64,000 nt of DNA, taken from contig CAWDLW010000043.1 of NCBI GenBank assembly GCA_963803145.1, positions 1 to 64,000 on the forward strand, in the 5' to 3' direction. This document shows positions 22,023 to 40,197 of the stretch, in pieces. The stretch comes from Methanotrichaceae archaeon (GTDB lineage: Archaea; Halobacteriota; Methanosarcinia; Methanotrichales; Methanotrichaceae). How positions within the stretch are numbered: position 1 is the first letter of the stretch; every line of letters begins with the position of its first letter. The position numbers were made by a program, and so were the translations under genes. The notes under the pieces were generated by a model. The model searched no databases. It worked only from the letters and a program-made list of their open reading frames with translations, and was not told where the DNA came from.

Positions 22023-22101
22023 CTTAAACAGTTTACATTATTTAATACTCAATGAGTTATATAATTTCCTAAAACTGATTGTAATCCTTGATACGCAAGA
22101 C

Positions 22102-22150
22102 TTATATATGATGTATTAATTGATACATCATAGTACAAGTTTATACATCA
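22102..22150 (+). promoter_or_regulatory. trp operon promoter with putative operator
   Basis: TTATATA box at 22102-08; inverted repeat ATGATGTAT (22108-16) / ATACATCAT (22123-31); AGTACA and TATACA boxes downstream. Confidence 0.55.
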
Positions 22151-22166
22151 AAGTTGGTGATTATAA

Positions 22167-23192: not shown

Positions 23193-23824
23193 CAAGGGCC
23201 AAGGTCTGTGGTATAATGAGCAAATCAGATCTTGAATCTGCCATTTCAGGAGGCGCCGATGCAGTAGGCTTTATAGTTGAGATTGAAGGGTCGCGCCATA
23301 TGATTTCTGTTGAGGCTGCAAGAGATATGATAATGAAAGTGCCTGTGTTCGTCAAAAGTGTCGCAGTGATTGCTCCGAATAGCGTCGATGAAGCTGCAGA
23401 GCTCGCTCATAAGACAGGTGCTGATCTTCTCCAGATACATGGGTCTTTGGGCCCGAAAGAAATCATAGCTCTGAAGGCCAGAGTCTCTCAGAGGATAATT
23501 GCGGCCGCGCCTGCAGGATCGGATAATATCCATAATATCCTCGGCCTGAGCACGGCAGCAGATGCTGTTCTTCTCGATACCTTCAAGGACGGTCAGCTTG
23601 GCGGCACCGGCGCAACACACGATTGGAACTTGAGCGCTAGCATTGTCAGGGATCTCAAGGCGCCAGTTATACTCGCAGGAGGCCTGAACCCTTCCAATGT
23701 GATAGAAGCGATAAAGACAGTCAGGCCTTATGCAGTGGATGTATCCAGCGGCGTAGAAACTGAAGGCATGAAGGACCCTGAAAAAGTAGCAGCTTTCGTG
23801 AAGGCGGTGAGAGCATGCCCCTAG
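23189..23824 (+). CDS. trpF: Phosphoribosylanthranilate isomerase
   Basis: KVCGI, QIHG, GGTG, ILAGGLNP and DVSSGVE motifs. Confidence 0.95.
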   Translation: MTRAKVCGIMSKSDLESAISGGADAVGFIVEIEGSRHMISVEAARDMIMKVPVFVKSVAVIAPNSVDEAAELAHKTGADLLQIHGSLGPKEIIALKARVSQRIIAAAPAGSDNIHNILGLSTAADAVLLDTFKDGQLGGTGATHDWNLSASIVRDLKAPVILAGGLNPSNVIEAIKTVRPYAVDVSSGVETEGMKDPEKVAAFVKAVRACP

Positions 23825-25254
23825 AGCCAGTTCTTGTAGACGTAACAGATAAAGTCAGCGTGGATGCGCCCTTATCGCTCTATCTAGCCTTAAGGTCTAG
23901 AAGATATCCTTATTTGCTGGAATCAGTTGAGAAATCGGGTAACAAAGCACGCTTTTCATTTGTCGGCGCAGATCCTTCTGCCCTTGTCACTATAAAGAAC
24001 CGATACTTAACAATGGAGTTCTTCAATGGCGAAATAGAGAAGATGCAAGAACGCCTGTCAATATGTATCGATGCCGAGCGAAATGGCTCCAAGATCGTTG
24101 GCATGATTAGAGAAGGCTATGATCTCTTCGATGCTCTGAGGGCGGCCATACCTTGCCAGAGGTGCAGCGAGCCTAACTCCTTCGGACGCCAGATGTTCTC
24201 AGGCGGCGGCATAGGTTATCTTGCCTACGACCTTATCAAGGAGCGCCTGGGCAGAGGCTCAATCTCAAATACGCCCGATGCCCAGTTCGCTATAACCGAG
24301 AGCACATTCATCTTCGACCATCTCACAAGGAAGGTCTATTTTACAGTAGCTCCAATCTTCCCAGGAGCCAAGACTGATCTGATAGAGATCATAGAGGGAT
24401 TTGATCCTGAGGGTGCCGATATAGAAGATCTGGATGGAGGCATTCTAAGCATCGGAGATAAAGACAGATACCAGGAGGCCGTCCTGAGATCGAAGACGCA
24501 CATAAAGGATGGCGATATATTCCAAGTAGTCCTTGCGAGGTCAGCCAGGATAAGCTGCTCAAACCCTATCGGACTTTATAGAAGGCTTCGCAGCATAAAC
24601 CCGAGCCCCTACACATACCTGTTCGAGTTCGGAGATCTATCGATAATTGGCGCCTCTCCTGAGACTCTTTTCAGCGCCTATGCGGGCAAGCTCAAGGTAA
24701 ATCCAATAGCAGGCACATGTCCTCGCGGAAAAACGCTTGATGAAGACGATGAGCTTGCGAAGGCAATGCTGAACGATGATAAAGAGAGGGCTGAGCATAT
24801 TATGCTTGTCGATTTGGGAAGGAATGATGTGAGATCAGTCTGTAAATCAGGAACTGTCAAAGTTGAAGATTTCATGTCGGTCCTGAAATACTCCCATGTG
24901 CAGCATATCGAGACAACTGTGGTCGGAGATCTCAGAGATGAGTGCGACCAATTCGATGCTGCTCGTTCAGTCTTTCCAGCAGGGACACTCTCAGGAGCGC
25001 CCAAGCTCAGGGCTATGGAGATCATTGATGACCTTGAGACTGAACCGCGAGGAATTTACGGAGGAGGCATTGGCTATTTCTCAGTTGACGGCAGTGCGGA
25101 TTTCGCAATTGCTATTCGCAGCATCCTAATCCAGAACGGCGTGGCGACTGTCCAGGCTGGGGCCGGAATAGTTGCAGATTCAGATCCATATCGTGAATAT
25201 CTGGAGACTGAAAGGAAGATGGCTGCCATGAAGCATGCCCTGGGGGCTGCATGA
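23815..25254 (+). CDS. trpE: Anthranilate synthase component I
   Basis: LLES, GDIFQVVL, NPSPY, ASPE, KERAEHIMLVDLGRND and PAGTLSGAPK motifs. Confidence 0.95.
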   Translation: MPLEPVLVDVTDKVSVDAPLSLYLALRSRRYPYLLESVEKSGNKARFSFVGADPSALVTIKNRYLTMEFFNGEIEKMQERLSICIDAERNGSKIVGMIREGYDLFDALRAAIPCQRCSEPNSFGRQMFSGGGIGYLAYDLIKERLGRGSISNTPDAQFAITESTFIFDHLTRKVYFTVAPIFPGAKTDLIEIIEGFDPEGADIEDLDGGILSIGDKDRYQEAVLRSKTHIKDGDIFQVVLARSARISCSNPIGLYRRLRSINPSPYTYLFEFGDLSIIGASPETLFSAYAGKLKVNPIAGTCPRGKTLDEDDELAKAMLNDDKERAEHIMLVDLGRNDVRSVCKSGTVKVEDFMSVLKYSHVQHIETTVVGDLRDECDQFDAARSVFPAGTLSGAPKLRAMEIIDDLETEPRGIYGGGIGYFSVDGSADFAIAIRSILIQNGVATVQAGAGIVADSDPYREYLETERKMAAMKHALGAA

Positions 25255-25847
25255 GGCCAATCCTTTTTGTGGATAACCAGGACTCCTTTGTCTGGAATCT
25301 CGTTGATTACGTTTCACAATTCTATGAGAACACGGTTGTAAGGCCAAACACGGTCAAGCTCTCTGAAGTTGAGGAAATGGATCCTCTGAGCATAGTGATA
25401 TCACCTGGGCCCGGACATCCTGCGAACGCGAGGGACATAGGCAGCTGCCTGGATATAATAAGACATTTCGGCAAAACCCCTATTCTGGGAGTCTGCCTTG
25501 GGCATCAGGCCATGAACCTGGCCTATGGGGGCACAATAGCACACACAAGTCCACTGCACGGCAAGACATCACAGATAAAGCATGACGGCAGAGGCATCTT
25601 TCGCGGCATAGAGAGTCCTCTGACAGGCGGACGCTACCATTCGCTGGCAATAGAGAAGCTTGCATCGCCGCTGGAGATATCGGCAGTTACGCAGGATGGC
25701 GTGATCATGGGCATAAGGCATAAAACGCTACCATCCAACGGCCTCCAGTTCCATCCTGAATCTGTGCTTACGCCGCAAGGAAAGAGGATCATATCCAATT
25801 GGATTGAGGATGTTGCAGGATGCACGCGACTATCGATGAGATCCTGA
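25251..25847 (+). CDS. trpG: Anthranilate synthase component II (glutamine amidotransferase)
   Basis: DSFVWNL, SPGPGHP, GVCLGHQ, RYHSL and QFHPES motifs. Confidence 0.95.
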   Translation: MRPILFVDNQDSFVWNLVDYVSQFYENTVVRPNTVKLSEVEEMDPLSIVISPGPGHPANARDIGSCLDIIRHFGKTPILGVCLGHQAMNLAYGGTIAHTSPLHGKTSQIKHDGRGIFRGIESPLTGGRYHSLAIEKLASPLEISAVTQDGVIMGIRHKTLPSNGLQFHPESVLTPQGKRIISNWIEDVAGCTRLSMRS

Positions 25848-26548
25848 AATCTTCACGAGAGCGCGGCTTTAGCCCTTCAGGCTGGGTGCCGGGAGAGCGC
25901 CGAGACCTCATCAGCTCAGCCAGGTCACTCAAATCCAGGGGCTTTATTCCAGTCATAGCGGAGATCAAGCCGAAGGCTCTTGGCAGGCCGCTGTCTCCTG
26001 AAGAGGTGGCTGCCTATTCAAAAGCCTATGCCGATAACAATGCCTGCGCTATATCTGTTCTGACAGAGCCAACTCACTTCAAGGGCTCTTTGGAAAATGC
26101 CAAGATAGCTAGGAATGCAGGTTTGCCGGTTTTAAGAAAGGATTTCATATTCGATGAAAGGCAGCTTCAGGAGGTGCAGGCTGATCTGGTTCTGTTGATT
26201 GCTTCTCTGGGCATCGACCTTGATAGATTTGTAGATATTGCCAGGGCCAATGAAATGGAGCCGCTGGTAGAGGTTCATAATAAAGAAGAGCTGAATAGCG
26301 CTCTGAAGACCGACGCTAGGATCATTGGGATCAACAATCGCAACCTGAATACTCTGGAGGTTGATCTCGGCACATTTGAGCGACTGGCGCCTATGGTCAA
26401 AGATATTGGCCTATTTCTAGTGGCTGAAAGCGGGGTTCACACCAGGGAGGAGGCCAAAAGGATGATAGAGGCAGGGGCGGATGCCCTGCTGGTAGGGACG
26501 ACCTTGATGGAGAGGCCGGAGAGGCTGAGGGAGCTAAACCGTTTATAG
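25820..26548 (+). CDS. trpC: Indole-3-glycerol phosphate synthase
   Basis: IAEIKP, SVLTEP, LRKDF, GINNRNL and AESG motifs. Confidence 0.95.
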   Translation: MHATIDEILKSSRERGFSPSGWVPGERRDLISSARSLKSRGFIPVIAEIKPKALGRPLSPEEVAAYSKAYADNNACAISVLTEPTHFKGSLENAKIARNAGLPVLRKDFIFDERQLQEVQADLVLLIASLGIDLDRFVDIARANEMEPLVEVHNKEELNSALKTDARIIGINNRNLNTLEVDLGTFERLAPMVKDIGLFLVAESGVHTREEAKRMIEAGADALLVGTTLMERPERLRELNRL

Positions 26549-26687
26549 CCCCATTGCTATGAAAAACATTAGATTGTCAATAGCTAGCGATCACTTTTAT
26601 CCTTCGGCTATGGTTCAAAAAACCAACCATTAAAAGAATCAGAGTTTTCATCTTCAACATAAGGAAGAATCGCTCATATTGTTCTCA

Positions 26688-26802
26688 TCAACCTTATAGC
26701 CTATCGTTTTCTGGAGCCTTCCCCCGCAGAGGGGTTAGGGGCAGCCCGCGCGGCGACTGAGCGCGCTAGTATAACCATTAGTGTTAGCCCCGAAAGAAGT
26801 GT
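26688..26802 (+). repeat. Structured dispersed repeat, copy C
   Basis: tcaaccttatagc...ccttccccc..gaggggttaggggcagcccgcgcggcgactgagcgcgctag...gtgttagcccc, matching copies A and B. Confidence 0.85.
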
Positions 26803-26975
26803 AGAGCTAATGACCATTTTCATTCTCCGGGCGTGATTCAATCACTCAGGGACTTCATGCTCATATTAAACATAGATGAGTTGAATAGTATTTTTCAAGA
26901 AGCTTTGAGTTTGGAGGCACAATGGCTAATCCGGACAGATAAGGCCATATACAAAAAACAACAGGAATCATTTGG

Positions 26976-27636
26976 ATGAAGAAGCTCACGGCTAATCGTC
27001 TCGGGCAGAGTCCAGGAGGTCGGCTATCGGGGCCGGGTAATCGAGATAGCCAGTGCTTTCGGCCTTAAGGGTATGATCGAGAACCTGAAAGATGGCAGGG
27101 TGAAGATCATAGCCGAGGGCGAGGATGAAAGGCTAAAATGGTTCGAGAGCGCCATTGATATAAGGAACACTTTGATCAATGTTTCTTCTATCGATAAAGA
27201 GTACTCGCCAGCACGCGGCGAGTTTGATCATTTCGGGAAGCTTGTGATCAAGGGCGAGACCGACGCCAGGCTGGATAAAGGCGTTGAGGTCATGAAAGAT
27301 CTGCTTGCCGGCATCAAAGATATTAATAAAACTCTGGCTGATATGAACTCCAATCTTGGCGGCAAGATGGATTTGATGATCAAGGGACAAGAAGGGCTCA
27401 GCGGCAAGACAGATTTAATGATCGAAGGACAAGAGAGGTTCAGCGGCAAGATGGACAAATCTCTAGCCAAACAGGACCGCATGCTGGAAAAGCAGGACGA
27501 GCTTCTTGTTGAGGTTAAAGATATGAACCGAAGCCTGAATGAGAAGCTTGACAAGGTTCTGGACAAGGATATAGTTGAATTGAAGGCCGATGTATCCGAG
27601 ATTAAGGCCGCTCTGAAGGCGAAGGGCATAATCTGA
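26976..27636 (+). pseudogene. Acylphosphatase-domain plus coiled-coil protein with a +1 frameshift at about 26994
   Basis: MKKLTA / IVSGRVQEVGYRGRV...GMIENLKDGRVKIIAEG (acylphosphatase signature) is broken by one extra A. The tail contains 14-aa (42-bp) repeats GKxDLMIxGQExxS. Confidence 0.8.
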
Positions 27637-27676
27637 ATTCTTCTATTGTTAAACCACCAAAAGGTGTTATGATACC

Positions 27677-30253
27677 TTAATTTCCTTTCGCCTTGAGATA
27701 ATCCTCAAATATGCTGTATTCCAAATTGTACAATGCCGTTATATCATACCGATTCTCGTCAACCGTTCTTGGGTCTAACTTGGAGTATCCCATATAGCCG
27801 GGCCCTCCGTAGAGACCGTCCTTGAATACTTGGGAGTCGGTGAAAAGCACGAATTTACCCTTGCCATAGTCCCTCCCGGCCAAAACGACTCTTCCATCCA
27901 CAGTCAGCATTGCACTTCCGCCTTTGATGGCCAGTCCCCATGGTTTTATGGGCAGTCCGTTTTTCGAACTCCAGTTCGCATTATCAGGTTCAATTGTCGA
28001 GTAAGTCGTCATTCCAAAGCGGTTGATCAGGCTGGACCATGGCCCTTCCGAGCTTATCATGAGCAGCACTGAATTGCCGTCCCTGACATAACTCAAGAGG
28101 GAATCAGTCTCTTCTGATGAAAGCGGTTTGACTGGATCTATTATGACAACCATTCTGCCCTTAGACATTCCATCTTCCATACTGCTGTCCAGCGATGGCG
28201 TCAGGTTAACTCTCTGGGTCCAAATGAAAAACGTCTCATACTGTCCCATCTGGTTCCCTCGAGTGGTTATGATATCCGAATGCTCTCCATCGAAACTGAC
28301 GGTATGGTTTCGAGCATAAAACAAACTTGGAACTGAATCCTCAGCCTTAATGGAAGTCGTGAGCAATGCCCCGCTGACCGATAGAGCACATAGGGACAGC
28401 ACCAGGACCAGAGCAGCCATCTTTTCATCTCCCCAGGTCCTCCTTCCGAGCAGGCAAGCCGCCATGATTGCTGTTATCAAGCCTATGATGAATAAGATCT
28501 GATTTATATTCTGGTAGGAGTTCTTATAGTTGAGGTACTCCATGACCCCGATTATCAGATTTGGAGATCCCCCGAAGAAAATCCTGAAATCAGAGGTTAT
28601 AGTTGAATCTGCAAAGGCTACGACTCTTCCTTTTCCATATTCGGTGGCTACAGCCTGATTCATCAACCCCCAGTTCGTATCTGTAGAATGAGTAGGATCG
28701 TTGCTTCTCGTCTCTCTGAAGAAGCCGACTGAAGAATATTCCCCGGGTTCAGCACCCATTCCAAATCCCAAAATCACAGGCTCGCTTCCGAGGGGCGCTT
28801 TCAGGCTGCAGCCTGTCATGAAGTCCAGTTCAGGCATGTACTTAATGGCGGGATGGAATAGTTGCCCCCTCGTGTAGTGGTATAGAGTCCCGTTTATGGA
28901 GTTGACTTCGTCAAATCCGAACTCTATCCCTAACCTCTTTGAAATTTCATTTAGATTTGTGCCGGTTCCTGCGAAGTTTGTATGATCACCTATCAGGAAC
29001 AACCCACCCCCATTTTCAACAAAACGGACTATTGCATCAATTTCTTCAGGCTTATATTGAGATGGCGTCTCCATTATTAGAATATCATAATTTTTCAATA
29101 TATCATAGGTCAGTTTATCGGATACGATGTCAGGCGCGACCTTTTCAGCACCTGGGACCTCCATATACTTAAATGAAGGATCTACTATTCTGTCCACATG
29201 ATATGTATCTTTAAGCCATTCGATCATGCTGTACGCGTTGTATGTTGAACCTTCTCCATACCAATTCTTGTCCAGCTTTAGTGTGGAGAGCTCCCAACGA
29301 GAGTGGATCTCATCCACAAGCACACGGCCGTCCTTTTTGATTCCCGGATCGTGGAAGATTACTGCAGATGTCAAACAGAATGAGCTTATTAAAACAATTG
29401 ATAAAGCTATGGCCAGGTTCCTATCGATATTCAATCTGATATCGAACCTCGATGGTCCATTCGCCGGATAAAGCCAGAGAAACAGCAGCACTAAGGGGAT
29501 AAAGCTGCCAATCAGCCACCACGGATCTATGAAAATCTCGATTCTGTCCATAGCGAACTCGGGCATATCCTTCCAGAAGAATATATGAACCAGGACCAGA
29601 TACCTCAGCAGTAAATATATGAAGCTAGCCGCTAGAAAGACAAAAATGCGTTTTGCAGAAGCTAATGTTCCCTGGGAGGTCAAGGATATCAACAAAACGG
29701 AGCCGACTAATATTAAAATCCAGGGATGAAATCCCAGCTTTTCCATATTTATATTAAAAGGAAAGACATCTTTTTGCGCAAATATCAGAAGCATACCCTG
29801 ACTCGACACGGCGTTCAGTCCTGAAAGTCTTGCGAGGACTGCCAATATGGGTGATAGCCAGCTCGCATCACGATAATTCGGTGTCACGATATAATAGATC
29901 GATAGAGCGAAAGAATGCAAGATCAGGACTGCCCCTGCGAAGAGAGGACCCAGCCAAATAGGTCCGAGTTCCGGTGCAATTAGAGATATTACCAGAGCTA
30001 CAGCAGTTACAATCAAACCTGCATTATAGGGATAAGGTATTATCAGACATGATAGAATCAAGGGCACCAGGACGACTGCATATCTTTTATCAACCACAGC
30101 CGAGCTTCCTAGAAATCCTGTCATAGAGATAGCTATTCCCAATAAAATGAATGCTGCTGCTGGGACAGGACTGGATGTAGGGCCGTTAATATCCACTTCA
30201 AACAGCCAGAATACGGTCAATGGTATCAGGGACAACCATAGTAATCGCTTCAT
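27677..30253 (-). CDS. Multi-TM membrane protein with two GATase1-like (GldG/DUF4350-like) soluble domains, paralog B
   Basis: About 10 N-terminal TMs; domain 1 GRVLVDEIH...YDILI..EIDAIVRFVENGGGLFLIGDHTN...GKGRVVAFADS; two TMs; domain 2 ...GKGKFVLFTDS. The true start is probably ATG 30253, which forms an ATGA overlap with the upstream gene. Confidence 0.75.
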   Translation of the reverse strand: MKRLLWLSLIPLTVFWLFEVDINGPTSSPVPAAAFILLGIAISMTGFLGSSAVVDKRYAVVLVPLILSCLIIPYPYNAGLIVTAVALVISLIAPELGPIWLGPLFAGAVLILHSFALSIYYIVTPNYRDASWLSPILAVLARLSGLNAVSSQGMLLIFAQKDVFPFNINMEKLGFHPWILILVGSVLLISLTSQGTLASAKRIFVFLAASFIYLLLRYLVLVHIFFWKDMPEFAMDRIEIFIDPWWLIGSFIPLVLLFLWLYPANGPSRFDIRLNIDRNLAIALSIVLISSFCLTSAVIFHDPGIKKDGRVLVDEIHSRWELSTLKLDKNWYGEGSTYNAYSMIEWLKDTYHVDRIVDPSFKYMEVPGAEKVAPDIVSDKLTYDILKNYDILIMETPSQYKPEEIDAIVRFVENGGGLFLIGDHTNFAGTGTNLNEISKRLGIEFGFDEVNSINGTLYHYTRGQLFHPAIKYMPELDFMTGCSLKAPLGSEPVILGFGMGAEPGEYSSVGFFRETRSNDPTHSTDTNWGLMNQAVATEYGKGRVVAFADSTITSDFRIFFGGSPNLIIGVMEYLNYKNSYQNINQILFIIGLITAIMAACLLGRRTWGDEKMAALVLVLSLCALSVSGALLTTSIKAEDSVPSLFYARNHTVSFDGEHSDIITTRGNQMGQYETFFIWTQRVNLTPSLDSSMEDGMSKGRMVVIIDPVKPLSSEETDSLLSYVRDGNSVLLMISSEGPWSSLINRFGMTTYSTIEPDNANWSSKNGLPIKPWGLAIKGGSAMLTVDGRVVLAGRDYGKGKFVLFTDSQVFKDGLYGGPGYMGYSKLDPRTVDENRYDITALYNLEYSIFEDYLKAKGN

Positions 30254-32850
30254 GCTTTTCCTTCCCGATACTTGGTTAACATCTCTCGCAGCAGCTCTAT
30301 ATTTCCTAACCACTGGAGCTGGTAAGGCTCTTTTGTCTCGGCACTGGAACCTTCGGATAAGTATTCAAGATTTTCATTTAACAAATATCTTGAATCGCCT
30401 ATCAGTATCACCTCTCCTTGGCCGACTCTCTTCGATATTATTAGGTTGTATTCGCGCCCGCTATAATTCAACCAAGTTATTATGCTGTAGTTACCAGCAG
30501 CCGTGACAGGGTAGGCATCCATGAACTTAGGTTGATGCCAGTATTTTTCCAGGTTTTCTGGCGTCACTGTTCCCTGACCCATGGTTCCTGTTCCGTGAGT
30601 ATCGACGATCCATGGAGGTGAGCCGAGGGGAAGATCGCCTATATGAAGTCCAAAGGAACTTAGTATTGAGTCAAGCGAGTCCGAGCTCTTATGGCCTGCA
30701 CTTATGACCAGCAAGCCGCCTTTGTCCACAAAGCTTCTTACAGCGGATGCTTCCTCCTGGGTATAACCGGCATTGGGAGCTATGATGAACATGAGCTTTC
30801 CGGTTTGAAGCCCCGGAAAACCATTTTTGTCATCTATAACCATCGGCAGATAGCCATTTCTGTAGAGATTTATCACCAATCCTGCAATGCTGTCGTCCTG
30901 GAAGTTCTCCATATTGAACTGGTTTAAATGTGAGTGGTCTATAAAGGCCACATTTTCATTTGTTCCTGTTGAGCCTTCGATTAGAGATCCATTTATGCCT
31001 TCAGCGATTACAAGCGAAAGGGCAATGATCACTGCAAATGAAGCGATCAGCGAGATCGTGACTTTGATATGACGTCGCATGATAACGATATATGTGATCA
31101 GAGCCGCAAGTATTACAAACGATAACCAGACAAGGTCTGAAGCATAACCCAACTCCCTGCTCATCAACCAGGCGATGGAATCGCAGACCATATTATATCT
31201 GAATGGCAGCACTGAGTTGAATATATAAGATGTGTCTCCGAACACAAGCACATTGCCCTTGCCGTAGGTTGAGGACGCAGCAACGACCAGATCGCCTAAC
31301 TCTTCTCCTTTTTCGTATGTCCTGTTCCCAAGGTGTCCAGACGAATTCGGGTTGGGTTTATCCGAGAACGAATACCGACCAATGAGGATAGGTCTCGCGT
31401 TTCCCTGCAGATCAAGAGACGCTCCGACTGATGAGGTAGTGATCTCAAACCCCATGTTTCTGGTAATATAATGAGGCAGAGGTATATCGGAATATGTCCA
31501 ATGGCCCTGGATATTATCGGCGGTGTCGGTGTTAATCTTGATTCCCGTGGGCTCGAGCACCTCGTCCAGGTAATCCTTTCCAGATGCATAATCCTGATCT
31601 GAAACAAACATGGAAGTATGATCTGCAAAGACTAGAAGATTTCCGCCACTTTTTATAAACTCATGGATATCGTTTAACTCAGATGAGCTGAATTCTTTGT
31701 TCAAATTTATCATCATCAATACACCGGCACCGTTAAGCGCTTCTTTTAAAGTGTGCGGATCGGTGTCGTTAAGCTCCTCAACTGAATACCCGAGATTCTT
31801 CAGATAAAGTCTCAAAGCACCAACTGAAAAATCAGTTTCAGGCATAAAGGATTGGTTTAGTCCTGGAAACTTGGGAATATAGAAGCCCATCGAGGAGTTC
31901 CGTTCATAAATAACCACCTTGTTTGCGTTGCCGGGAATGCTATAATACGGAAAAATACAGATCAGCGTCAGAGAAAGAAATAATGCAGTTAGTATGACGG
32001 CATTCCTTGATATTGGGACCGGAGATCCATAATCTATGGGTCTGACTTTGAGTCCAGGAATGAACAATATAAAAGGTATAAGAAGAATAAAAAAAGCCCA
32101 GTAAAGGTTATCCATAGCCATACCTGCAGTCATCCAGTCGGTGGAAAGGACCCAGATGTAACATCCATAAGCCAGAGGTAGCCCGACAGCAGATGCCAGG
32201 ATCTTCCATTGCCGGGACCTTTCTCTTTCGGACAGAATAAAAAACGCTGCCGCACAAGAGACAAATGTCAGGAGGATCAAGGTACCGCTCATTGTGGGAC
32301 CTATATTCAACTGGACTCCTGAAAGCCGACCTATGATACCCGAAATCATTTCAGACAGCGATCTGATTTGCATCCATATCATGGGGACATGTATATAAAA
32401 TATATAAAAGATGGTATAAATTGTACTTCCCAGGGCAAGGGCGATCAGATGGCCATCATTATCATTGGCTGATTTTGATATTAAATCCAATCCGCAAACG
32501 AATATTATAAGGCCGATAAGCCAGAATTCCGGGCTAAGTGTGAAAAGAATTGTCGAAAAAGATGCCAAAAGAAGCGCCATTCCCAAAACAGCAGGCGTTC
32601 TTTTAGATATGTTTACATAATTATTGGTATATAATAATAATGTTCCTGCCAATGACAGGACTCCACATAAGCGGAAAAATATTGGCGATCCATATCCTAA
32701 ATTTAGAGAAAAAGCATTTAATGTAAATAAAATTAAAGCAATAGATATCCATTTTTTCATCAGTAATTTGATTTCACTTAAAAAGTTTATTTTGGATTTA
32801 ATATTTATCCCCTTATCGACTTGCATTGAAATCTTACTCGACCCCCACAT
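30250..32850 (-). CDS. Multi-TM membrane protein with two GATase1-like (GldG/DUF4350-like) soluble domains, paralog A
   Basis: About 9-10 TMs; domain 1 ELNDIHEFIKSGGNLLVFADHTS...GKGNVLVFGDTS; two TMs; domain 2 FIDHSH...EASAVRSFVDKGGLLVI...GQGEVILIGDS. The start may be ATG 32760. Confidence 0.75.
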   Translation of the reverse strand: MWGSSKISMQVDKGINIKSKINFLSEIKLLMKKWISIALILFTLNAFSLNLGYGSPIFFRLCGVLSLAGTLLLYTNNYVNISKRTPAVLGMALLLASFSTILFTLSPEFWLIGLIIFVCGLDLISKSANDNDGHLIALALGSTIYTIFYIFYIHVPMIWMQIRSLSEMISGIIGRLSGVQLNIGPTMSGTLILLTFVSCAAAFFILSERERSRQWKILASAVGLPLAYGCYIWVLSTDWMTAGMAMDNLYWAFFILLIPFILFIPGLKVRPIDYGSPVPISRNAVILTALFLSLTLICIFPYYSIPGNANKVVIYERNSSMGFYIPKFPGLNQSFMPETDFSVGALRLYLKNLGYSVEELNDTDPHTLKEALNGAGVLMMINLNKEFSSSELNDIHEFIKSGGNLLVFADHTSMFVSDQDYASGKDYLDEVLEPTGIKINTDTADNIQGHWTYSDIPLPHYITRNMGFEITTSSVGASLDLQGNARPILIGRYSFSDKPNPNSSGHLGNRTYEKGEELGDLVVAASSTYGKGNVLVFGDTSYIFNSVLPFRYNMVCDSIAWLMSRELGYASDLVWLSFVILAALITYIVIMRRHIKVTISLIASFAVIIALSLVIAEGINGSLIEGSTGTNENVAFIDHSHLNQFNMENFQDDSIAGLVINLYRNGYLPMVIDDKNGFPGLQTGKLMFIIAPNAGYTQEEASAVRSFVDKGGLLVISAGHKSSDSLDSILSSFGLHIGDLPLGSPPWIVDTHGTGTMGQGTVTPENLEKYWHQPKFMDAYPVTAAGNYSIITWLNYSGREYNLIISKRVGQGEVILIGDSRYLLNENLEYLSEGSSAETKEPYQLQWLGNIELLREMLTKYREGKA

Positions 32851-33066
32851 CCTTCGCAGTCCTATTTCAACTGCAGATATAATTCTGTCGGTCTTTTATC
32901 GGAAACCAGATGCCAGCGATAAACATCGGCGGAAATAAAATTGTTCAAAATGACGAAGAATACGAACTCCTCGATAGTTTTTTATACTTTATTCCAAATT
33001 CGTCAATAACAGAAAGAAATTTGAAGTGGAGTGAATTAGTTTTTTGAGGGAACAAGGAGGGTTTAA

Positions 33067-34482
33067 ATGAAACTAAGATTGGAATTGCTAGTAGCCATTG
33101 GTTTTTTAATAGCAATATTAAATGTGGCCATATCCTTTGGCGCTAGCTCAGATGCCAATGCAAATGATCCTAACTTCTCACCTCTTTATGATTATAGGTA
33201 TCAGCAGGTTAGTGAGAAGCTGGGGGTTTTGGCAAATGGAACTTCAGATAGCAAATTGAGCTATGGCAGCATAAAGACGACGAGTTTGCATCCAGAAAGC
33301 GCAGTTGAAGGGACTGCATGCAAACTTACTATCAAAAGTGATGAATCTGGGGCTCAAGATACCTCTAAATGCTTCAACCAAATAGGGGATACCGTCTATG
33401 AGACCTGTGGCGATTGGCCGACATGCAGTAGCACTTGTGGCAGCACTTGCGCTGCATCCTGCGGCGACTCCTGCAGCGACACTTGCGGTAGCACTTGTGG
33501 CAGCACTTGTGCCTACTCTTGCGGCAGCACATGTACCCTTGATACTTGTAGCAGCACTTGCGCCGACTCCTGTGGCAGCACTTGCGGTAGCACTTGTGGC
33601 AGCACTTGTGCCTACTCTTGCGGCAGCACATGTACCCTTGATACTTGTAGCAGCACTTGCGCCGACTCCTGTGGTAGCACTTGTGGCAGCACTTGTGGCA
33701 GCACTTGTGCCTACTCTTGCGGCAGCACATGTACCCTTGATACTTGTAGCAGCACTTGCGCTGCATCCTGTGGCAGCACTTGTGGAAGTACTTGCGCTGC
33801 ATCCTGTGGTGGCACATGTACCCTTAATACTTGCGTCAGCACCTGCGGCAGCACTTGCGCTAACACCTGTCGTGGCACATGTGGCAGCACTTGCGCTAAC
33901 ACCTGTCGTGGCACATGTGGCAGCACCTGCGGCAGCACTTGCGCCAATACCTGTCGTGGCACATGCTCAGCTACCTGTTGGGCCACTTGTAGCCCCAAGT
34001 GTATACCTGCCCCCATACCCATAGTTCCAGCAGTCAATAGTGTGCTGAAAAATATCCCTTATGCCAATAATACACTCAAATCTCTACCGGCAGCAGAACA
34101 AAACAGGCTGTATCCATATAACATCCAAAAATACCCACCTCAATCGGTTTACTATCAAGGAACAATTATTCCTTGGTCAGCATTCCTCCAGAGCTTCAAT
34201 GGAGATCAACCACTAGCGTGGATCGATATCATAGGCGGTTGGGGTGTTACTGCAAAAACTCCTCAAAACACCTGGGTGCCTGAGATCTTCTATGTCCCGA
34301 CAGCCGGAAGACTGACATTGATCGAGACATCACCAGACGGCAGGACCATTACACTGGACTTTGGTAGCACTACACCAGGGTACAAATACCTGTGGTTCAA
34401 TGTAAACCAGCTTGGCAAATTTACAGATGCCTTCGCTATAGGGTATATATCAAGCAATAGTGTAACATTATACGGGTATTAG
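33067..34482 (+). CDS. Secreted protein with a long Cys-x3 (S/T-C) repeat array and a globular C-terminal domain
   Basis: GGAGG RBS and signal peptide; about 200-aa array of 49 Cys (TCGSTCAYSCGSTCTLDTC...); Cys-free aromatic-rich C-terminal domain. Confidence 0.85.
   Translation: MKLRLELLVAIGFLIAILNVAISFGASSDANANDPNFSPLYDYRYQQVSEKLGVLANGTSDSKLSYGSIKTTSLHPESAVEGTACKLTIKSDESGAQDTSKCFNQIGDTVYETCGDWPTCSSTCGSTCAASCGDSCSDTCGSTCGSTCAYSCGSTCTLDTCSSTCADSCGSTCGSTCGSTCAYSCGSTCTLDTCSSTCADSCGSTCGSTCGSTCAYSCGSTCTLDTCSSTCAASCGSTCGSTCAASCGGTCTLNTCVSTCGSTCANTCRGTCGSTCANTCRGTCGSTCGSTCANTCRGTCSATCWATCSPKCIPAPIPIVPAVNSVLKNIPYANNTLKSLPAAEQNRLYPYNIQKYPPQSVYYQGTIIPWSAFLQSFNGDQPLAWIDIIGGWGVTAKTPQNTWVPEIFYVPTAGRLTLIETSPDGRTITLDFGSTTPGYKYLWFNVNQLGKFTDAFAIGYISSNSVTLYGY
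33403..34002 (+). repeat. Coding tandem repeat: 12-bp units (e.g. ggcagcacttgt) organised in about 3 copies of a 99-bp higher-order unit
   Basis: 33481-33579 recurs at 33580 and 33679; 36-bp GSTCANTCRGTC-type units follow later. Confidence 0.9.
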
Positions 34483-34490
34483 GTGAGAAG

Positions 34491-34526
34491 GTATCCCAAG
34501 CCAAATCTTGGGATGCCATATTTTTG
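34491..34526 (+). terminator. Putative terminator hairpin
   Basis: gtatcccaag-ccaaat-cttgggatgc followed by a T tract. Confidence 0.55.
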
Positions 34527-34629
34527 AAATGTGTCTTGATGTCACCAATACAACAGTTCAGGCATTGCTTGGAAAGGGCAGAGAACTCAATCTCAGCCAT
34601 GTTATGCATAAATAGCTAGAAGGCAGGCC

Positions 34630-36588
34630 TTAAGTTTGCTTGAGCTTCTTGCGCTCTTCTTTTCTTCTCTCAACCCTATAATCGCGTAGCATGCCCTCCA
34701 GCCAGTCAGCTTTACGTTCAGCCTGGCGAAGCTTCATCTTATCCTGCCACTGCCCCAATGCAGCCTCAACATTGTCGGGCTTGACAAAGGCAACGCCATC
34801 TACCTTGTGGATCTGAACCTCCCTGCTTGAGAAGACGGGTATACCCTTCTCATAGAAGTATTCTCTAACTGCAGGGGCCATATCGCCGTCTGTTATCACA
34901 GCCTTGATACTCCTCTCAACCAGAAGGTCTGTTGTATTCGGCCCACCGCCGCTCGCATCCTCCAGCAGCACAACATCACCCTTCTCTATCCCCCAACGCT
35001 CAGAAGCCGCAGCAATAGATTCCTTTGAAAACGTTTCCAGCACCTTAAGCCTCTGGTAGCCCTTCATCTCCTCAATCTTCTCTGCCTTCTTCTGCTTATT
35101 CCGGTCCTGCTTCAGCTTGCGGATGTACTTGCGTTCTGAACGCAGCAGTGCACGTAAGCGATCGATCTCCTTATCCCTTATCTTTATCTCCTGGTCTCGT
35201 TTGATCTCCCTGGCGGCCTTATCCCTCATCCTATCCATCTTGTTCTCTAACCTGTTCAGGGCATCATTCCTCTCAGCCAGATCAGCATTCAGCTCGTCCA
35301 CATAAGCCCTCAATGTTTTGATCTGTTCAGCAAGCTGCTGGTTCTGGCTTCTTAAGGCTGCCACATCTGGTGCCACTACAGCCTCGGAAGGTGGAGCAGG
35401 CCTCGCCTCATGAATGGGTTGGGCTGTAAACTCTGCTATGGCATTCTCTATCGAATAGCCCTTCACAACCAGCGCCTTGACTTCGTCAGGATCTACTTCA
35501 GGAGGGACCTTTTTGTCGACCTGCATGAACTTGTTTTTATATTTTTTATAAGCGCTTATTGCTGCAGCCAATGAGTCGCGCTCATGATCGTTCCTGTAGC
35601 CGAACTCCTTTGCAAGGGCTATCTTTTCCTCTGCAGGCACATCAGAACCAGGGGAATAAAGAACTGCATTGAAGGCTCTCTTAACCTTCTCAACTGCGCC
35701 TGGCGTTGGGAAGACATCTGTTGCGACAATTAACGGCCTTCCTCTGGCGGCGATCCACTCGATAACATCAGAAGAGGACATCTCTCTGGCACTTATGACC
35801 TCGATCAGGTCTCCACCCAGTGTCAGGGCTGCGATGCCAGTCGTTGTCCCTGGATCAAGGCCGATTATAGTTAGCTCGCGTCTCTGTGCCAGCGGTTTGT
35901 ACTGAAGCTGAGGCCTCTCTACGCCCTGCACCTTTACCTGAGCATCGCAATAGTAGCCTGGACTCACATGCACCTTCTCACGGGGCGCATCTACAACGAA
36001 CTCTGCCCTGGTGTATCCGCCTAAGCCTTCGGCTGCCCTGCTTGTGAAATCCAGGCCGGCTTCCCGGAGCTGGCTTTCAACCTCACGAGCCAAGCCCTTC
36101 ACCGCGCCATGGATCTTCCTAGAGTATCTGTTCTGGCTCCAGCCGCCTCTTCCAGGGCTGCGTCTTCGGCTCACTTTAATCCATGTTCTATCCTCGAAGG
36201 CAGAGAGAACCTGGCCAATGCCCTTGGCCGCAAGGCGGGCGCACACCTCGGCTTCCTCAAGAGGATTCAGTCTATCAAATGTTATGCCATGCCATTTTGC
36301 GATCTTAGTTAGAGCCTCAGGCTTATCTCCTCCTGTAACCTGTACGAGCTTTGTGGAGGGTGGAAGGCGTCTGAGAAGCGAAATGAGCTCCGCCCGATCT
36401 GATGCAAGCTCATGAACGTTATCCATTGCAACTATTTCGGGCTGTTTTTCCCTTATCAGCCGGATCAGCTTATGCCTGCTGATCATGTGATATGTTGATT
36501 TGTTATCTCCGTCCAAGATTACCAATGAGTAGCTTGGTGGGCGGCGGCTGTTTGGAGAACCACTGGCGATATCAACGCCAAATATCAT
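34630..36588 (-). CDS. DUF460 domain protein (RNase H-like domains plus coiled coil)
   Basis: IFGVDI, RSPGRGGWSQNRY, IIGLDPGTTTGIA and NDHERDSLAAA motifs. Confidence 0.85.
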   Translation of the reverse strand: MIFGVDIASGSPNSRRPPSYSLVILDGDNKSTYHMISRHKLIRLIREKQPEIVAMDNVHELASDRAELISLLRRLPPSTKLVQVTGGDKPEALTKIAKWHGITFDRLNPLEEAEVCARLAAKGIGQVLSAFEDRTWIKVSRRRSPGRGGWSQNRYSRKIHGAVKGLAREVESQLREAGLDFTSRAAEGLGGYTRAEFVVDAPREKVHVSPGYYCDAQVKVQGVERPQLQYKPLAQRRELTIIGLDPGTTTGIAALTLGGDLIEVISAREMSSSDVIEWIAARGRPLIVATDVFPTPGAVEKVKRAFNAVLYSPGSDVPAEEKIALAKEFGYRNDHERDSLAAAISAYKKYKNKFMQVDKKVPPEVDPDEVKALVVKGYSIENAIAEFTAQPIHEARPAPPSEAVVAPDVAALRSQNQQLAEQIKTLRAYVDELNADLAERNDALNRLENKMDRMRDKAAREIKRDQEIKIRDKEIDRLRALLRSERKYIRKLKQDRNKQKKAEKIEEMKGYQRLKVLETFSKESIAAASERWGIEKGDVVLLEDASGGGPNTTDLLVERSIKAVITDGDMAPAVREYFYEKGIPVFSSREVQIHKVDGVAFVKPDNVEAALGQWQDKMKLRQAERKADWLEGMLRDYRVERRKEERKKLKQT

Positions 36589-37460
36589 ACGGTCTCCTTG
36601 CTGACGGCCCTCACTGTAGACAGGGCATCCTCCGAAGGCATATCTATCCTATATCTGCGCTCGAAGAACCTCAAGATGTTGCCAACATCCCTCTCCAAAA
36701 GCTCAGCCGCGCTTGGGTGATTGATATCAACTGCCTGTGGCCAATCGATTATCTTAAGATCATCCTCCATTACGATCACGTTGAATTCGCTCAGATCCGC
36801 GTGAATGATGCCTTTCTCATAGGTTTTCCTGACCTCATCAAGGATAATCTCCAAACATTCCTGAGGATCGCTGAGGATCACCCGGTTGAGCTGATCGCCG
36901 GATAAGAGTTCCATCGCCAGTGCATGTCTGCTGATTGCCACAGGTTTTGGAATGGATACATCTGGATAAAGCCTCTTCATAATTTGGAACTCATGACGTG
37001 CAGCCAGAGATGCGGCATAAAGCCAGGGGACCCTAGGCATATCCTTGAGATGGTCGCGCGCCCGGCGCACATGCTTAAAACTTGTCCGCCCCTGGCGGTG
37101 AAATTTTATCACAAGAGGAATTTCGCCAAGGGCATCGAACACAACGGACTCCTTACCAACTCCTACCCTGCCTCCGATGCATTTTACAAAATCGCGCTCT
37201 ACCAGGTCTGAGAGCGCTATGAGATCATATGCATCAAAATCTATCTGATAGCCCTCATAGTGCATTGTCGTTCTAGTGACAAGCTTCGCTTCAGAAAGGA
37301 TATGCAACCGGTATTCAGCCTTGCGAAGGTTGATGCCGGATAAACGCGAAATCTCAGGGAGAGGGACCCATTCATAATCCCTCATCCCTGCCTCAATTGA
37401 GCCGAGGATAGTTAGGTCTTCTTTGCTCAGCTTTAGAAAGGTCTCTGCGAGGTTGTCCAC
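36585..37460 (-). CDS. rio2: RIO2-family serine/threonine kinase
   Basis: N-terminal wHTH; GVGKES, KFHRQGRTSF, HADLSEFN and IDWPQ motifs. Confidence 0.9.
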   Translation of the reverse strand: MDNLAETFLKLSKEDLTILGSIEAGMRDYEWVPLPEISRLSGINLRKAEYRLHILSEAKLVTRTTMHYEGYQIDFDAYDLIALSDLVERDFVKCIGGRVGVGKESVVFDALGEIPLVIKFHRQGRTSFKHVRRARDHLKDMPRVPWLYAASLAARHEFQIMKRLYPDVSIPKPVAISRHALAMELLSGDQLNRVILSDPQECLEIILDEVRKTYEKGIIHADLSEFNVIVMEDDLKIIDWPQAVDINHPSAAELLERDVGNILRFFERRYRIDMPSEDALSTVRAVSKETV

Positions 37461-37491
37461 GTATTCTAGTTTGTCTTATTCGACTAAATCT

Positions 37492-38691
37492 TTACCTCTG
37501 AAATCCTGCCCATCTGCTCTCCAGATCGGCAGATCTGACGGTTTCCATCACATAATCCGCGAACTGCGCGCCCGTAGCACCATCCGGCCGCCCAGTAATT
37601 GCAACCTTCCTCTCAAACTGTCCGCAGATATCAAGGGCCATCTCCATTCTCTTGGCCTTCTCAATGAACCCTATGTGCCTGAGCAGCATCACAGCAGCCC
37701 TCATTATGCTTGAAGGATCAGCGTATTCTGCTCTACCCTCCTGCACCATCCTCGGGGCAGACCCGTGAATAGCCTCGAACATGGCGTATCTCTTTCCAAT
37801 ATTCGCGCTTCCTGCAGTTCCCACGCCTCCCTGGAACTCTGCTGCCTCATCTGTGAGGATGTCGCCATACAGGTTCGGAAGCACTATCACCTTGAACTGA
37901 GTCCGCCTCTTTGGATCGATAAGCTTGGCTGCCATGATATCTACAAACCAGTCATCGAACTCGATTCCAGGATATTCGCGGGATATCTTTCTGGCAGTCT
38001 CAAGGAATTTGCCGTCAGTGGTCTTGATAACGTTAGCTTTTGTCACTGCAGATACGCGATTGATGCCGTTGTTCTTGGCATACTCAAAGGCGAGGCGGAT
38101 GATTCTGTCGGAACCTTGTGTAGTTATGACTTTAAAGTCCACTGCCAGATCATCTGTCACATTGAACCCCTTGCTTCCCAGGATGTACTCGCCCTCTGTA
38201 TTCTCCCTGAAGAATATCCAATCTATTCCCTGTTCAGGGACCTTGACAGGACGTACATTGGCAAACAGATCGAGCTCACGGCGCATGGCTACATTGGCGC
38301 TCTCAAGATTTGGCCATGGATCGCCCTTCTTCGGCGTTGTCAGAGGCCCTTTCAAAAGGACATGACATTTCTTTAACTCCTCAAGCGCCGTATCTGGCAG
38401 GGCCTTCATGGCCTTGGCACGTTCCTCGATGGTCAGACCATCGATCTGCCTCAGCTCGACAGTCCCTTGCGCGAGCTCATCATTAAGCAGATACTTGAGA
38501 ACACGAACTGCCTCGCGGGTTATATAAGGCCCGATCCCATCTCCACCCACTACTCCTACTACTATCGGTTTCACCTTGGAGTAGTCAACCCAATCGGCAC
38601 CAGCCTTCATCGCTTCAACATATCTGAGCTGTTGCTCAATGAGCTTGCCGAAATGCTCCTTCGCCTTCTCCACTACCTCGGGTTGCGTCAT
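37492..38691 (-). CDS. Isocitrate/isopropylmalate dehydrogenase family protein
   Basis: GDGIGP, KGPLTTP, SANVAMRR, RENTEGEY, NLYGDILTD and FEAIHGSAP motifs. Confidence 0.9.
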   Translation of the reverse strand: MTQPEVVEKAKEHFGKLIEQQLRYVEAMKAGADWVDYSKVKPIVVGVVGGDGIGPYITREAVRVLKYLLNDELAQGTVELRQIDGLTIEERAKAMKALPDTALEELKKCHVLLKGPLTTPKKGDPWPNLESANVAMRRELDLFANVRPVKVPEQGIDWIFFRENTEGEYILGSKGFNVTDDLAVDFKVITTQGSDRIIRLAFEYAKNNGINRVSAVTKANVIKTTDGKFLETARKISREYPGIEFDDWFVDIMAAKLIDPKRRTQFKVIVLPNLYGDILTDEAAEFQGGVGTAGSANIGKRYAMFEAIHGSAPRMVQEGRAEYADPSSIMRAAVMLLRHIGFIEKAKRMEMALDICGQFERKVAITGRPDGATGAQFADYVMETVRSADLESRWAGFQR

Positions 38692-38928
38692 GTAGTGCGA
38701 TGATACATCCTAAGCACATCAATCTTTTGAGAGAGCAGCAGAGATATAAGCACGAATAGCCACGACCTAAGCTACATGGAGACAGGCACTATCATATTCT
38801 ATGCAGTATTATTCCTCTTGGCATTCATGATCGCCAGGATTATCATGAGAATCATTAGAGGCTACTAAATCATCTTGAACCAGCCTCTGGCGACAGGCTT
38901 AATATCAATTCTATAGTAACTGTACAGC

Positions 38929-40197
38929 ATGTTTCCCCATGTCCTTGCCACAGTCGGCGGCTCCGGGACACGTCTATATCCACTCACCCTAGAGCAGCCG
39001 AAACCGCTGGTGGAGCTATGTGACACAGCAATCATAGCGATACTTTTCAGAGTCCTGGCAATACAGGGCTGCAGGAAATTCATTCTGGGCAGCAAGGGCG
39101 CAAATAATACGCTAAACCTTAGCAACTACTTCAAAGCCGGAGAGGGTTTTTTCAGGAGGATGGGCATCGATGATCATGAAGACTTCAGCTATCAGCCGTT
39201 ATACGATGATAAGGGCAGTGCCGATTCAATGAAATATTGCATAAATTATTTTGATATAAACGATGACCTGTTAGTCGTATCCGGCGATAATCTAATTGAT
39301 ATAGATCTCAATAAGTTCGTCAACTTCCACCATGAACACAAGCCCATACTTACTGTTGCCTTAAAGGAGCTAGGCCCAGAGGAAAACGTTTCTCAGTACG
39401 GAGTTGCTAAGATCGATGAGGATATGCGCATTAAGGGCTTCGTAGAAAAGCCCAGGGACGGAACAGAGCCAAGCAGGATGATCAACACCGCCTTCTACTT
39501 ATTTTCACCCGAAATTCGCGATGTTCTTAACGAGATGGGAGAATCTGCAAAAGATATTGGCGGGGACCTTATACCATACCTTACTGAGAATGGCTATCCA
39601 GTCTACGGCTACCCTATCAGCGGCTACTGGATAGATATAGGCACACCTGATAGGCTTCATCAGGCTGCCATGGATTGCTTAGGAGGCAGGGTCAGGCATT
39701 TCGATAGGAAATATCAGTATGGTCCGAATCAGTGGGTACACCCAAGCACTTTAGAGAGGATAAGGGAATATCTGGACACTGGGGAGATAAAACTTATAGG
39801 AAATGTGTCCATCGGAAGGAACTGCCTCATAGAGCGCGGCACGGTAATAGAAAATTCGCACATCGGCCATACGAGCCTAATAGGTCGAAATACAGAGATA
39901 AGAAACAGCCTCGTAATGAGCTTCTGCAACATTAAGCGCGGAGTCGTTATGAACCGTGCCATTATCGGTAGGCATTCAATAATTGAGGCTAACAGCATTC
40001 TAAGTGCAAATGGAGGAGACAATAGCAAAGTACCTGTCGTTGGCGAGAATGTTATTTTGCCTGCAGAGTCAGTTGTTGGCGCAGGAACTAGGATTGCCCC
40101 TCTAAAACATAGCCATAGTATCCTTGCCACAGGCAGATTTGCAGAGCTTGGAATCGATGATAAAAATATTTACTTTACAGAAAAGACGCATAAATAA
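38929..40197 (+). CDS. NDP-sugar synthase / sugar-phosphate nucleotidyltransferase
   Basis: GGSGTRLYPLT...KP, SGD, FVEKP, YWIDIGT and C-terminal hexapeptide repeats. Confidence 0.88.
   Translation: MFPHVLATVGGSGTRLYPLTLEQPKPLVELCDTAIIAILFRVLAIQGCRKFILGSKGANNTLNLSNYFKAGEGFFRRMGIDDHEDFSYQPLYDDKGSADSMKYCINYFDINDDLLVVSGDNLIDIDLNKFVNFHHEHKPILTVALKELGPEENVSQYGVAKIDEDMRIKGFVEKPRDGTEPSRMINTAFYLFSPEIRDVLNEMGESAKDIGGDLIPYLTENGYPVYGYPISGYWIDIGTPDRLHQAAMDCLGGRVRHFDRKYQYGPNQWVHPSTLERIREYLDTGEIKLIGNVSIGRNCLIERGTVIENSHIGHTSLIGRNTEIRNSLVMSFCNIKRGVVMNRAIIGRHSIIEANSILSANGGDNSKVPVVGENVILPAESVVGAGTRIAPLKHSHSILATGRFAELGIDDKNIYFTEKTHK

Follow-up and report, generated by a model that had tools for sequence, protein, structure and literature searches.

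Paired membrane proteins with GIFT-type domains beside a tagged Cys-repeat protein: a candidate cell-envelope system in a Methanotrichaceae archaeon

GldG, which belongs to the gliding-motility ATP-binding cassette (ABC) transporter GldAFG of Flavobacterium, is a membrane-anchored protein with a GIFT-type domain (PF09822) outside the cell. In the exosortase/PEP-CTERM, archaeosortase/PGF-CTERM and type IX secretion system (T9SS) C-terminal domain systems, a dedicated membrane machine stands beside variable secreted proteins that share a short terminal tag adjoining a hydrophobic helix. Archaeal proteins of arCOG01314 carry a DUF4350/GldG-like outside domain between a signal peptide and one membrane helix at the C-terminus, and they have been predicted to take part in a complex for secretion or membrane remodelling (Makarova et al. 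2015, PMC5898192). In Methanothrix, which has sheath (SH) proteins, disulfides link the hoops of the sheath, and a recent survey reports that no assembly factors were found (Medvedeva et al. 2024, PMC11576556). Here we describe three adjacent genes, called A, B and C, in the first 64,000 nucleotides (the window) of contig CAWDLW010000043.1 from a Methanotrichaceae archaeon (assembly GCA_963803145.1), of which A and B encode large membrane proteins and C a secreted, very Cys-rich protein. The trio looks like an undescribed cell-envelope system, while its domain families are themselves known.

A and B share with GldG the membrane anchor and the GIFT-type domain of PF09822. Unlike GldG, they stay far below the cut-off of the GldG equivalog TIGR03521 (12.6 bits for A against 389.85, and no match for B) and have no ABC genes nearby; in addition, each combines about nine membrane helices at the N-terminus with two domains of the GIFT type, and the two form a fixed pair with a tagged partner. 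The outside domain is also what they have in common with arCOG01314, the subject of the nearest published analysis, whereas their 9-10 N-terminal segments and internal hairpin differ from the signal peptide and single C-terminal helix of that group; a polytopic N-terminus and two GIFT-type domains in each protein set A and B apart, and a tagged partner is not mentioned in the available part of that paper (PMC5898192). The sorting systems named above follow the same logic, but their signals are C-terminal and the tag described below is N-terminal, and A and B have no match to an exosortase profile and no conserved Cys. No description of the A/B pair or of its tagged partner was found in the full-text literature (subscription journals being outside this scope), and no curated family of Pfam or NCBIfam covers the tagged partners.

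The coordinates of the three genes and of the parts of A and B are as follows.

30250-32850, reverse strand: gene A, 866 aa (open reading frame (ORF) listing, hydropathy, Pfam, AlphaFold2 model).
31945-32850, reverse strand: membrane domain of A, residues 1-302.
31135-31944, reverse strand: predicted outside GIFT-like domain D1 of A, residues 303-572.
31006-31134, reverse strand: helical hairpin of A, residues 573-615.
30253-31005, reverse strand: GIFT-like domain D2 of A, residues 616-866.
27677-30253, reverse strand: gene B, starting with the ATG at 30253 and coding for 858 aa (ORF listing, Pfam, hydropathy), laid out as A with a membrane domain at about residues 1-300, D1 at about 300-584, a hairpin at 585-631 and D2 to the end.
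30250-30253, reverse strand: ATGA stop/start overlap of A and B (TCAT on the forward strand).
33067-34482, forward strand: gene C, secreted tagged Cys-repeat protein of 471 aa with a signal peptide at about residues 1-25.

The stop codon of A (TGA) overlaps the ATG of B, exactly where an earlier reading of this DNA from its letters alone (the sequence-only reading) had placed a junction of the two genes; the longest frame of B (27677-30313, reverse strand) has a GTG start and 878 aa. Kyte-Doolittle peaks mark 9-10 hydrophobic segments at the N-terminus of each protein and two further segments at residues 573-615 of A and 585-631 of B. The AlphaFold2 model of A, which was built on 41 orthologues (predicted local distance difference test, pLDDT, 77.2; predicted template-modelling score, pTM, 0.77), consists of ten N-terminal helices, an alpha/beta domain at about residues 303-567, a helical hairpin at 570-623 and a second alpha/beta domain. 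Hydropathy and model therefore bear out the common architecture first read from the sequence, namely N-terminal transmembrane segments, a soluble domain, two transmembrane segments and a second soluble domain. The basic loops of A at 207-216, 268-283 and 591-596 all fall on one side of the membrane, as judged by eye from sequence, hydropathy and model, and because of this both soluble domains are placed by eye outside the cell, with helix 156-176 predicted to lie at the surface. A and B had also been called paralogs, which is true of the soluble halves (they align over 383 aa at 21% identity with E=3e-12, and in this half only) but not of the N-terminal membrane domains, between which profile-profile comparison with hhalign detected no homology (probability 1.1%).

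The earlier assignment of the soluble domains to the GIFT/GldG/DUF4350 type was confirmed by Pfam, by Foldseek and by a wide structural search. Both proteins pass the curated Pfam cut-offs of ABC_transp_aux (PF09822; score/cut-off 56.9/34.7 for A and 40.9/34.7 for B), DUF4350 (PF14258; 56.8/30.4 and 45.2/30.4) and IFT52_GIFT (PF23355; 27.9/27.2 and 35.3/27.2). The structural matches of A fall almost exclusively on residues 303-866. For D1 (303-567) the best match is the GIFT domain of IFT52 (5fms_A, Z 18.7, root-mean-square deviation 3.0 over 205 residues), followed in the wide structural search by the GATase1-like (class I glutamine amidotransferase-like) protein 3rht_A (Z 16.5) and by OST48/Wbp1 of oligosaccharyltransferase (6s7o_G, Z 16.3; 6c26_B, Z 15.7); ThuA-like proteins are also similar in both searches, and the Foldseek E values for D1 are about 1e-5 to 1e-4. 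D2 (629-866) matches the GATase-like domain of site-1 protease (S1P; 8uw8_A, Z 15.2) and groups with the middle domain of glycoside hydrolase family 42 (GH42) enzymes as well. IFT52 and OST48/Wbp1, which match D1 best in structure, are scaffold subunits of eukaryotes at 11-19% identity, and the shared fold shows no shared function. Most orthologues of A carry a precomputed label PF27016, which is not in the Pfam copy used; a newer release may define the family.

Two motifs of D1 that the sequence-only reading had pointed out are real and deeply conserved. They are SGGNLLVFADHTS / NGGGLFLIGDHTN and GKGNVLVFGD / GKGRVVAFAD in the A/B pair, and the D-H-T part of the first was mapped at the following positions.

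31615-31623, reverse strand: D410-H411-T412 of A, directly after strand 404-408 of the AlphaFold2 model.
28979-28987, reverse strand: D423-H424-T425 of B, the counterpart motif in D1 (B-type alignment).

Among 46 diverse A-type sequences H411, T412, G538 and D539 are invariant, and among 30 B-type sequences G422, D423, H424, D549, S550 and T551, with T425 conserved in at least 90%. In A the conserved residues of the putative pocket are H411, T412, D442, D497, E516, D520 and D539, and B has a matching motif. Further conserved motifs lie in the membrane domains on the predicted outer face: LNxFSLNxG in A, and IPYPYN and FPF..EKLGF.PW in B. The membrane domain of A is weakly conserved between phyla, with G189 as the sole invariant residue. 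No Cys is invariant in either set of sequences, and because of this an active class I glutamine amidotransferase is excluded; the D-H-T motif is what sits after strand 404-408.

Beyond the family, a profile of the A membrane domain matched 134 clusters among 1.84 billion representatives, the full-length matches being mostly about 780-930 aa long and the named ones going by "hypothetical protein". A scan of one genome per species kept 80 of 147 relatives, which comprise 11 loci of Methanotrichaceae, 32 of other archaea (mostly Thermoplasmatota) and 37 of bacteria from many phyla. A B-type gene follows the A-type gene within 300 bp in 68 of the 80 loci by script and in 70 by reading, since in two loci ORF extension by the script had hidden B; among the remaining loci nine end at a contig edge, one has B 6.8 kb away and one has no B. 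The gap between the two genes has a median of -4 bp, with a stop/start overlap in 53 of 69 pairs. The view of the pair as a conserved two-gene unit is therefore well founded. In a FastTree phylogeny of 66 A proteins, Methanotrichaceae form a single clade (support 99) that has one Thermoplasmatota record as its neighbour, and archaea are split from bacteria (support 94; a quick method, with several long branches), which argues against frequent recent transfer between the domains.

What recurs beside the pair is a short N-terminal motif of the neighbouring secreted proteins, [ST]P[LAVI][FY], usually followed by xxRT or xxxLxxAIxxLE as read from the neighbour sequences. A tagged partner was defined as a protein with a hydrophobic N-terminal segment and this motif within about 40 residues, encoded at most 3 kb from A/B. 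By eye, 22 of the 32 other archaeal loci have such a neighbour, usually directly after B, with one to three proteins of about 110-250 aa (mostly 220-250) and 2-7 Cys, and 19 of the 37 bacterial loci have one, 17 of these 19 with 12-92 Cys. With fixed criteria, the 313 kb that lie no more than 3 kb from the pair held 48 tagged ORFs, spread over 37 of the 69 non-family loci, against 7 in the 414 kb farther away, five of which look like true extra copies, so that tagged ORFs are enriched about ninefold near the pair. C itself and the client of a second family cassette also carry the motif (SPLYDYR and SPLYQVR). The expectation that homologues of the pair would be accompanied by Cys-rich proteins was thus borne out in 17 of the 37 bacterial loci and failed in the other archaea, where no Cys-rich neighbour was found in any of the 32 loci at the thresholds used. 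Because the partners at these 22 other archaeal loci have at most 7 Cys yet carry the motif, the conserved partner is, as far as can be judged from sequence, the tagged protein, and Cys richness belongs to some clients only.

The neighbour clusters of the 69 non-family loci consist of the pair, the tagged proteins, a 353-aa signal-peptide protein and lineage-specific housekeeping genes. In Pfam and NCBIfam the tagged partners have no match except for a T9SS C-terminal domain on one bacterial client; this protein (L095:15245-17503, forward strand; 752 aa, 92 Cys) ends in the T9SS sorting domain, and therefore the N-terminal tag and a C-terminal sorting signal can coexist. The 353-aa protein follows the tagged proteins in 19 other archaeal loci, mostly of Thermoplasmatota (e.g., L064:9240-10301, forward strand), has no Pfam or NCBIfam match, and may be a fourth component in that archaeal lineage.

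In the window the tagged protein is C, the parts of which are given here.

33178-33288, forward strand: N-terminal tag region of C, S38-L74 (SPLYDYRYQQVSEKLG...), the best-conserved part of C.
33406-34002, forward strand: Cys array of C, residues 114-312, 49 Cys, mostly CxxxC.
34099-34479, forward strand: C-terminal all-beta domain of C, ten predicted strands, low confidence.

As first read, C has a signal peptide and an array of about 200 aa with 49 Cys; of its 51 Cys in total these 49 lie within residues 114-312, mostly at a spacing of four, and make up 25% of the array. In the DNA of the array, a period of 12 bp (41.8 copies) and a unit of 99 bp (3.4 copies) were found, and since the copies of the latter agree at 94% matches, the array has grown recently. 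Six orthologues of C share 43-47% identity. Their tag region is nearly invariant (the residues shared by all 7 orthologues include P39, L40, D42, Y43, R44, Y45, Q47, V48, E50, L52 and G53), with F-S-P-L-Y at residues 37-41 downstream of the signal peptide of about 25 residues, while the array keeps just its C and T positions. Pfam and NCBIfam hold no family for C, for the other Cys-repeat proteins or for the tagged proteins of Thermoplasmatota. The AlphaFold2 model of C (7 sequences) reached a pLDDT of only 38.6, and the structure search with this low-confidence model gave low-Z helical and Ig-like rows, the Ig-like ones at Z of about 7 for residues 389-471. In other frames over the array, ORFs of 108-208 aa (Cys/Arg/His-rich or Ala/Leu/Val-rich) lie at 33374-34037 on both strands; these are by-products of the repeat, not genes.

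The C-terminal domain of C has its own distribution. Matches to its sequence (34003-34479) were found in 95 of 105 family genomes, with all 16 genera represented, multi-copy and often in tandem, and it is therefore a common module of secreted proteins, not specific to the cassette; a protein homologue search with residues 313-471 gave no match, which is taken as the limit of that search. At 27% identity (E=4e-8), the beta domain resembles a separate secreted protein of 271 aa that adjoins a Cys-repeat gene of a 700-aa variant of the cassette (described below); databases hold 574 relatives of this protein, none of which is named and some of which have cupredoxin domains. By description, the domain shares traits of the SH proteins in the survey (PMC11576556), being all-beta and found in signal-peptide proteins of about 230-450 aa, in multiple and tandem copies across 16 genera, and it may be related to the sheath proteins, whose known members have a core of two six-stranded beta sheets. 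Against this likeness, cupredoxin domains occur in some relatives of the domain, and proteins described as having them (mBio 2023 table) are missing from the SH gene set in the supplement of PMC11576556.

Within Methanotrichaceae, three cassettes occur in the genome that contains the window: the copy in the window, a second pair of the 860-aa type (contig 20, 55% identity) and a pair of the 700-aa variant. The flank survey of the family, with ORFs listed by script, covered 19 distinct loci with the 860-aa pair and 8 with the 700-aa variant. A secreted Cys-repeat ORF adjoins the 860-aa pair in 11 of the 19 (the window, L015, L016, L017, L026, L027, L029, L030, L031, L044 and L049), seven flanks are too short, and one locus is without such an ORF; for the 700-aa variant, five of 8 loci have one or two Cys-repeat ORFs, two have none and one is cut. 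In the end, such an ORF stands beside the pair in 16 of the 19 family loci with readable flanks, so that the synteny proposed from the window alone does recur in the family, although these loci are related by descent and their counts are not independent events. The position of the partner varies, and three gene orders were seen: divergent upstream, convergent downstream, or upstream on the same strand. In the whole genome, 31 of 3261 ORFs of at least 150 aa have at least 8% Cys, 21 of the 31 have a hydrophobic N-terminus, and four of these 21 secreted Cys-rich ORFs sit at the three cassettes; such secreted-looking ORFs reach up to 978 aa.

The 700-aa type of cassette (contig 20 of the same genome at about 144-152 kb, L025; also L022, L024, L033 and L035) begins with a protein of 250-276 aa that has a signal peptide and, at its C-terminus, a membrane helix; two GIFT-domain membrane proteins of about 700 aa come next. 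It is flanked by secreted proteins of CPTGxG hexapeptide repeats, with Cys at every sixth residue, up to 68 Cys, and no SP[LA][FY]. Divergently upstream of the second family cassette lies a conserved secreted protein of 276-293 aa with two similar halves (L015:3510-4340, reverse strand; L016:12374-13255, forward strand; L019:14274-15107, forward strand), which matches Pfam DUF4785_3rd (E=3.9e-8).

To explain these observations, we propose that A, B and C are one functional unit, the local copy of a widespread three-part envelope module, a proposal whose chances we consider to be about evenly balanced. A and B would be two anciently diverged, co-translated polytopic membrane proteins that form one complex, with four domains of the GIFT type (GATase1-like, but no amidotransferases) turned outward from the membrane. 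Their partners would be exported by the Sec pathway and carry, just after the signal peptide, a short tag of S-P-hydrophobic-F/Y followed by an amphipathic stretch. This tag, 10-15 residues into the mature protein, may dock on the His/Asp pocket of the outside domains or on the conserved outer-face membrane motifs, and a docked client would be held, put together or passed on at the cell surface, so that it would be retained or assembled there. The client here would be C, whose body is the CxxxC/Thr array joined to a beta domain common in secreted proteins of Methanotrichaceae. A more far-reaching version, in which A/B is a new sorting or anchoring machine that reads an N-terminal tag in archaea and more than 10 bacterial phyla, as the counterpart of the C-terminal signals of sortases, exosortases and T9SS, and which in relatives of Methanothrix installs Cys-repeat proteins in the sheath or envelope, is offered tentatively, as something that may well prove wrong.

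Several results weigh against the proposed module. B-type matches occur in just 26 of 105 family genomes (9 of 16 genera), and the pair therefore does not serve a core function of the envelope. Three loci with good flanks (L019 with the 860-aa pair, L023 and L032 with the 700-aa variant) have no Cys-repeat gene, 17 of the 21 secreted Cys-rich ORFs of the own genome stand apart from any pair, and the Cys-repeat neighbours of the 700-aa variant lack the [ST]P[LAVI][FY] tag. Outside the family, 32 of the 69 loci have no tagged ORF by the fixed criteria. A 36-column tag profile that included the family sequences picked exactly C and the second client from the 20,798 ORFs of the own genome, which is a circular test; a profile made without Methanotrichaceae did not recover C from these ORFs and ranked the second client sixth (E=2.1). 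The tag as a feature shared across clades therefore rests on a motif of 4-8 residues together with its position and synteny.

The main rival is enzymatic: outside the cell, A and B would alter the tagged clients or process them, by glycosylating their Ser/Thr-rich bodies or by cleaving at the tag, with the His/Asp pocket of the GIFT-like domains as the active site. We regard this as unlikely, though it has to be weighed seriously. From the model and from what is known of the fold, H411 is three residues after strand 404-408, at the position of the nucleophile of class I amidotransferases; several acidic residues are invariant in the A-type and B-type sequences, and the fold neighbours include OST48/Wbp1 of oligosaccharyltransferase at the Z values given above. 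Peptidase families also exist on the class I amidotransferase-like fold. However, the 25 largest neighbour clusters contain no gene for a glycosyltransferase or another enzyme, and for the closest folds (IFT52, OST48/Wbp1, the GH42 middle domain and ThuA-like proteins) we know of no catalytic role of the fold in those proteins.

It is also conceivable that the membrane domains of A/B are exosortase-like and recognise the signal-anchor together with the tag as a sorting signal at the N-terminus, a mirror image of PEP-CTERM sorting, but we think this improbable. A language-model feature search did place exosortase/archaeosortase clusters among the nearest hits of both domains (0.77 and 0.82, a range rated as giving leads only), and a motif beside a membrane helix on the outer face resembles the C-terminal sorting signals. 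Exosortases and archaeosortases have a conserved catalytic Cys; PF09721 was matched by none of 13 A and none of 12 B membrane domains even at E<=10, the sequences of A and B have no invariant Cys, and the A membrane domain is poorly conserved (G189 only).

That A/B is a GldG-type accessory of an ABC exporter, with C as an unrelated neighbour, is very improbable, since the PF09822 matches and database names such as "Gldg family protein" among the homologues are set against the TIGR03521 score of 12.6 bits, the enrichment of the tagged partner beside the pair, the lack of any ATPase or permease-like ORF among the ORFs of at least 80 aa at 24000-38000, where Pfam identified the flanking ones, and the lack of any visibly ABC-like member in the 25 largest neighbour clusters of the 69 loci (judged by eye from examples, only some being checked with Pfam). 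Equally hard to credit is that the pair loads metal onto C, or exports it, as a metal-binding or redox device, for which only the high proportion of Cys in the array and the family's anoxic lifestyle speak, because the same pair adjoins partners with 2-7 Cys in the 22 other archaeal loci and no metal transporter or chaperone gene is conserved nearby in the 25 largest neighbour clusters.

If the three genes of the proposed module do work together, they would represent a conserved envelope system of archaea and many bacterial phyla, and the N-terminal tag would join the known protein-sorting signals. This would give a handle on how variable proteins, very Cys-rich ones included, are placed at the surface. 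It would also provide candidate accessory factors for the envelope or sheath proteins of the relatives of Methanothrix, which are relevant to methane production; the 2024 survey found none (PMC11576556).

The surroundings of the trio in the window include the following features.

32851-33066, no strand: divergent spacer between A and C, 216 bp, AT-rich, with TTTATA-like boxes on both strands and GGAGG before the ATG of C.
34493-34526, forward strand: terminator-like inverted repeat ATCCCAAG..CTTGGGAT with a T-run, 11 bp past the stop of C, as read from the sequence.
27372-34616, no strand: island relative to the same-genus genomes, with the trio and the 3' part of a 187-aa ORF.

The spacer agrees with the divergent arrangement across about 215 bp that had been noted before; its boxes are putative promoters, and the lowest GC content of all 500-bp bins in the window (0.338) is found at 32500-32999. 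Likewise, the housekeeping flanks, the dispersed repeat and the AT-rich part of the earlier description were found again: trp genes, DUF460 and Rio2 flank the trio according to Pfam. The flanks at 22024-26549 and 34617-40000 match two same-genus genomes (G001 and G002) at 86-89% nucleotide identity, while the interval between them is 8.1 kb here against 1.8 kb in G002 and 4.5 kb in G001. The trio is missing at this site in both, and each has its own different pair elsewhere (65-67% nucleotide identity). With conserved flanks and a shorter interval in both relatives, the trio is therefore an accessory island about 7 kb long, and it is not flanked by any direct or inverted repeat of at least 11 bp. 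Just left of the island lies a dispersed repeat (26554-26841) of about 120-300 bp, similar to a miniature inverted-repeat transposable element, which is present dozens of times in the own genome as well as in the two same-genus genomes. The 187-aa ORF (27073-27636, forward strand) matches with its first 54 residues only positions 31-83 of the 85-position acylphosphatase profile, about the last two thirds of it, and ends in a repetitive, coiled-coil-like tail. Since around this ORF only 26901-27371 is conserved in the same-genus genomes, its 3' part is island sequence or the remnant of a fusion.

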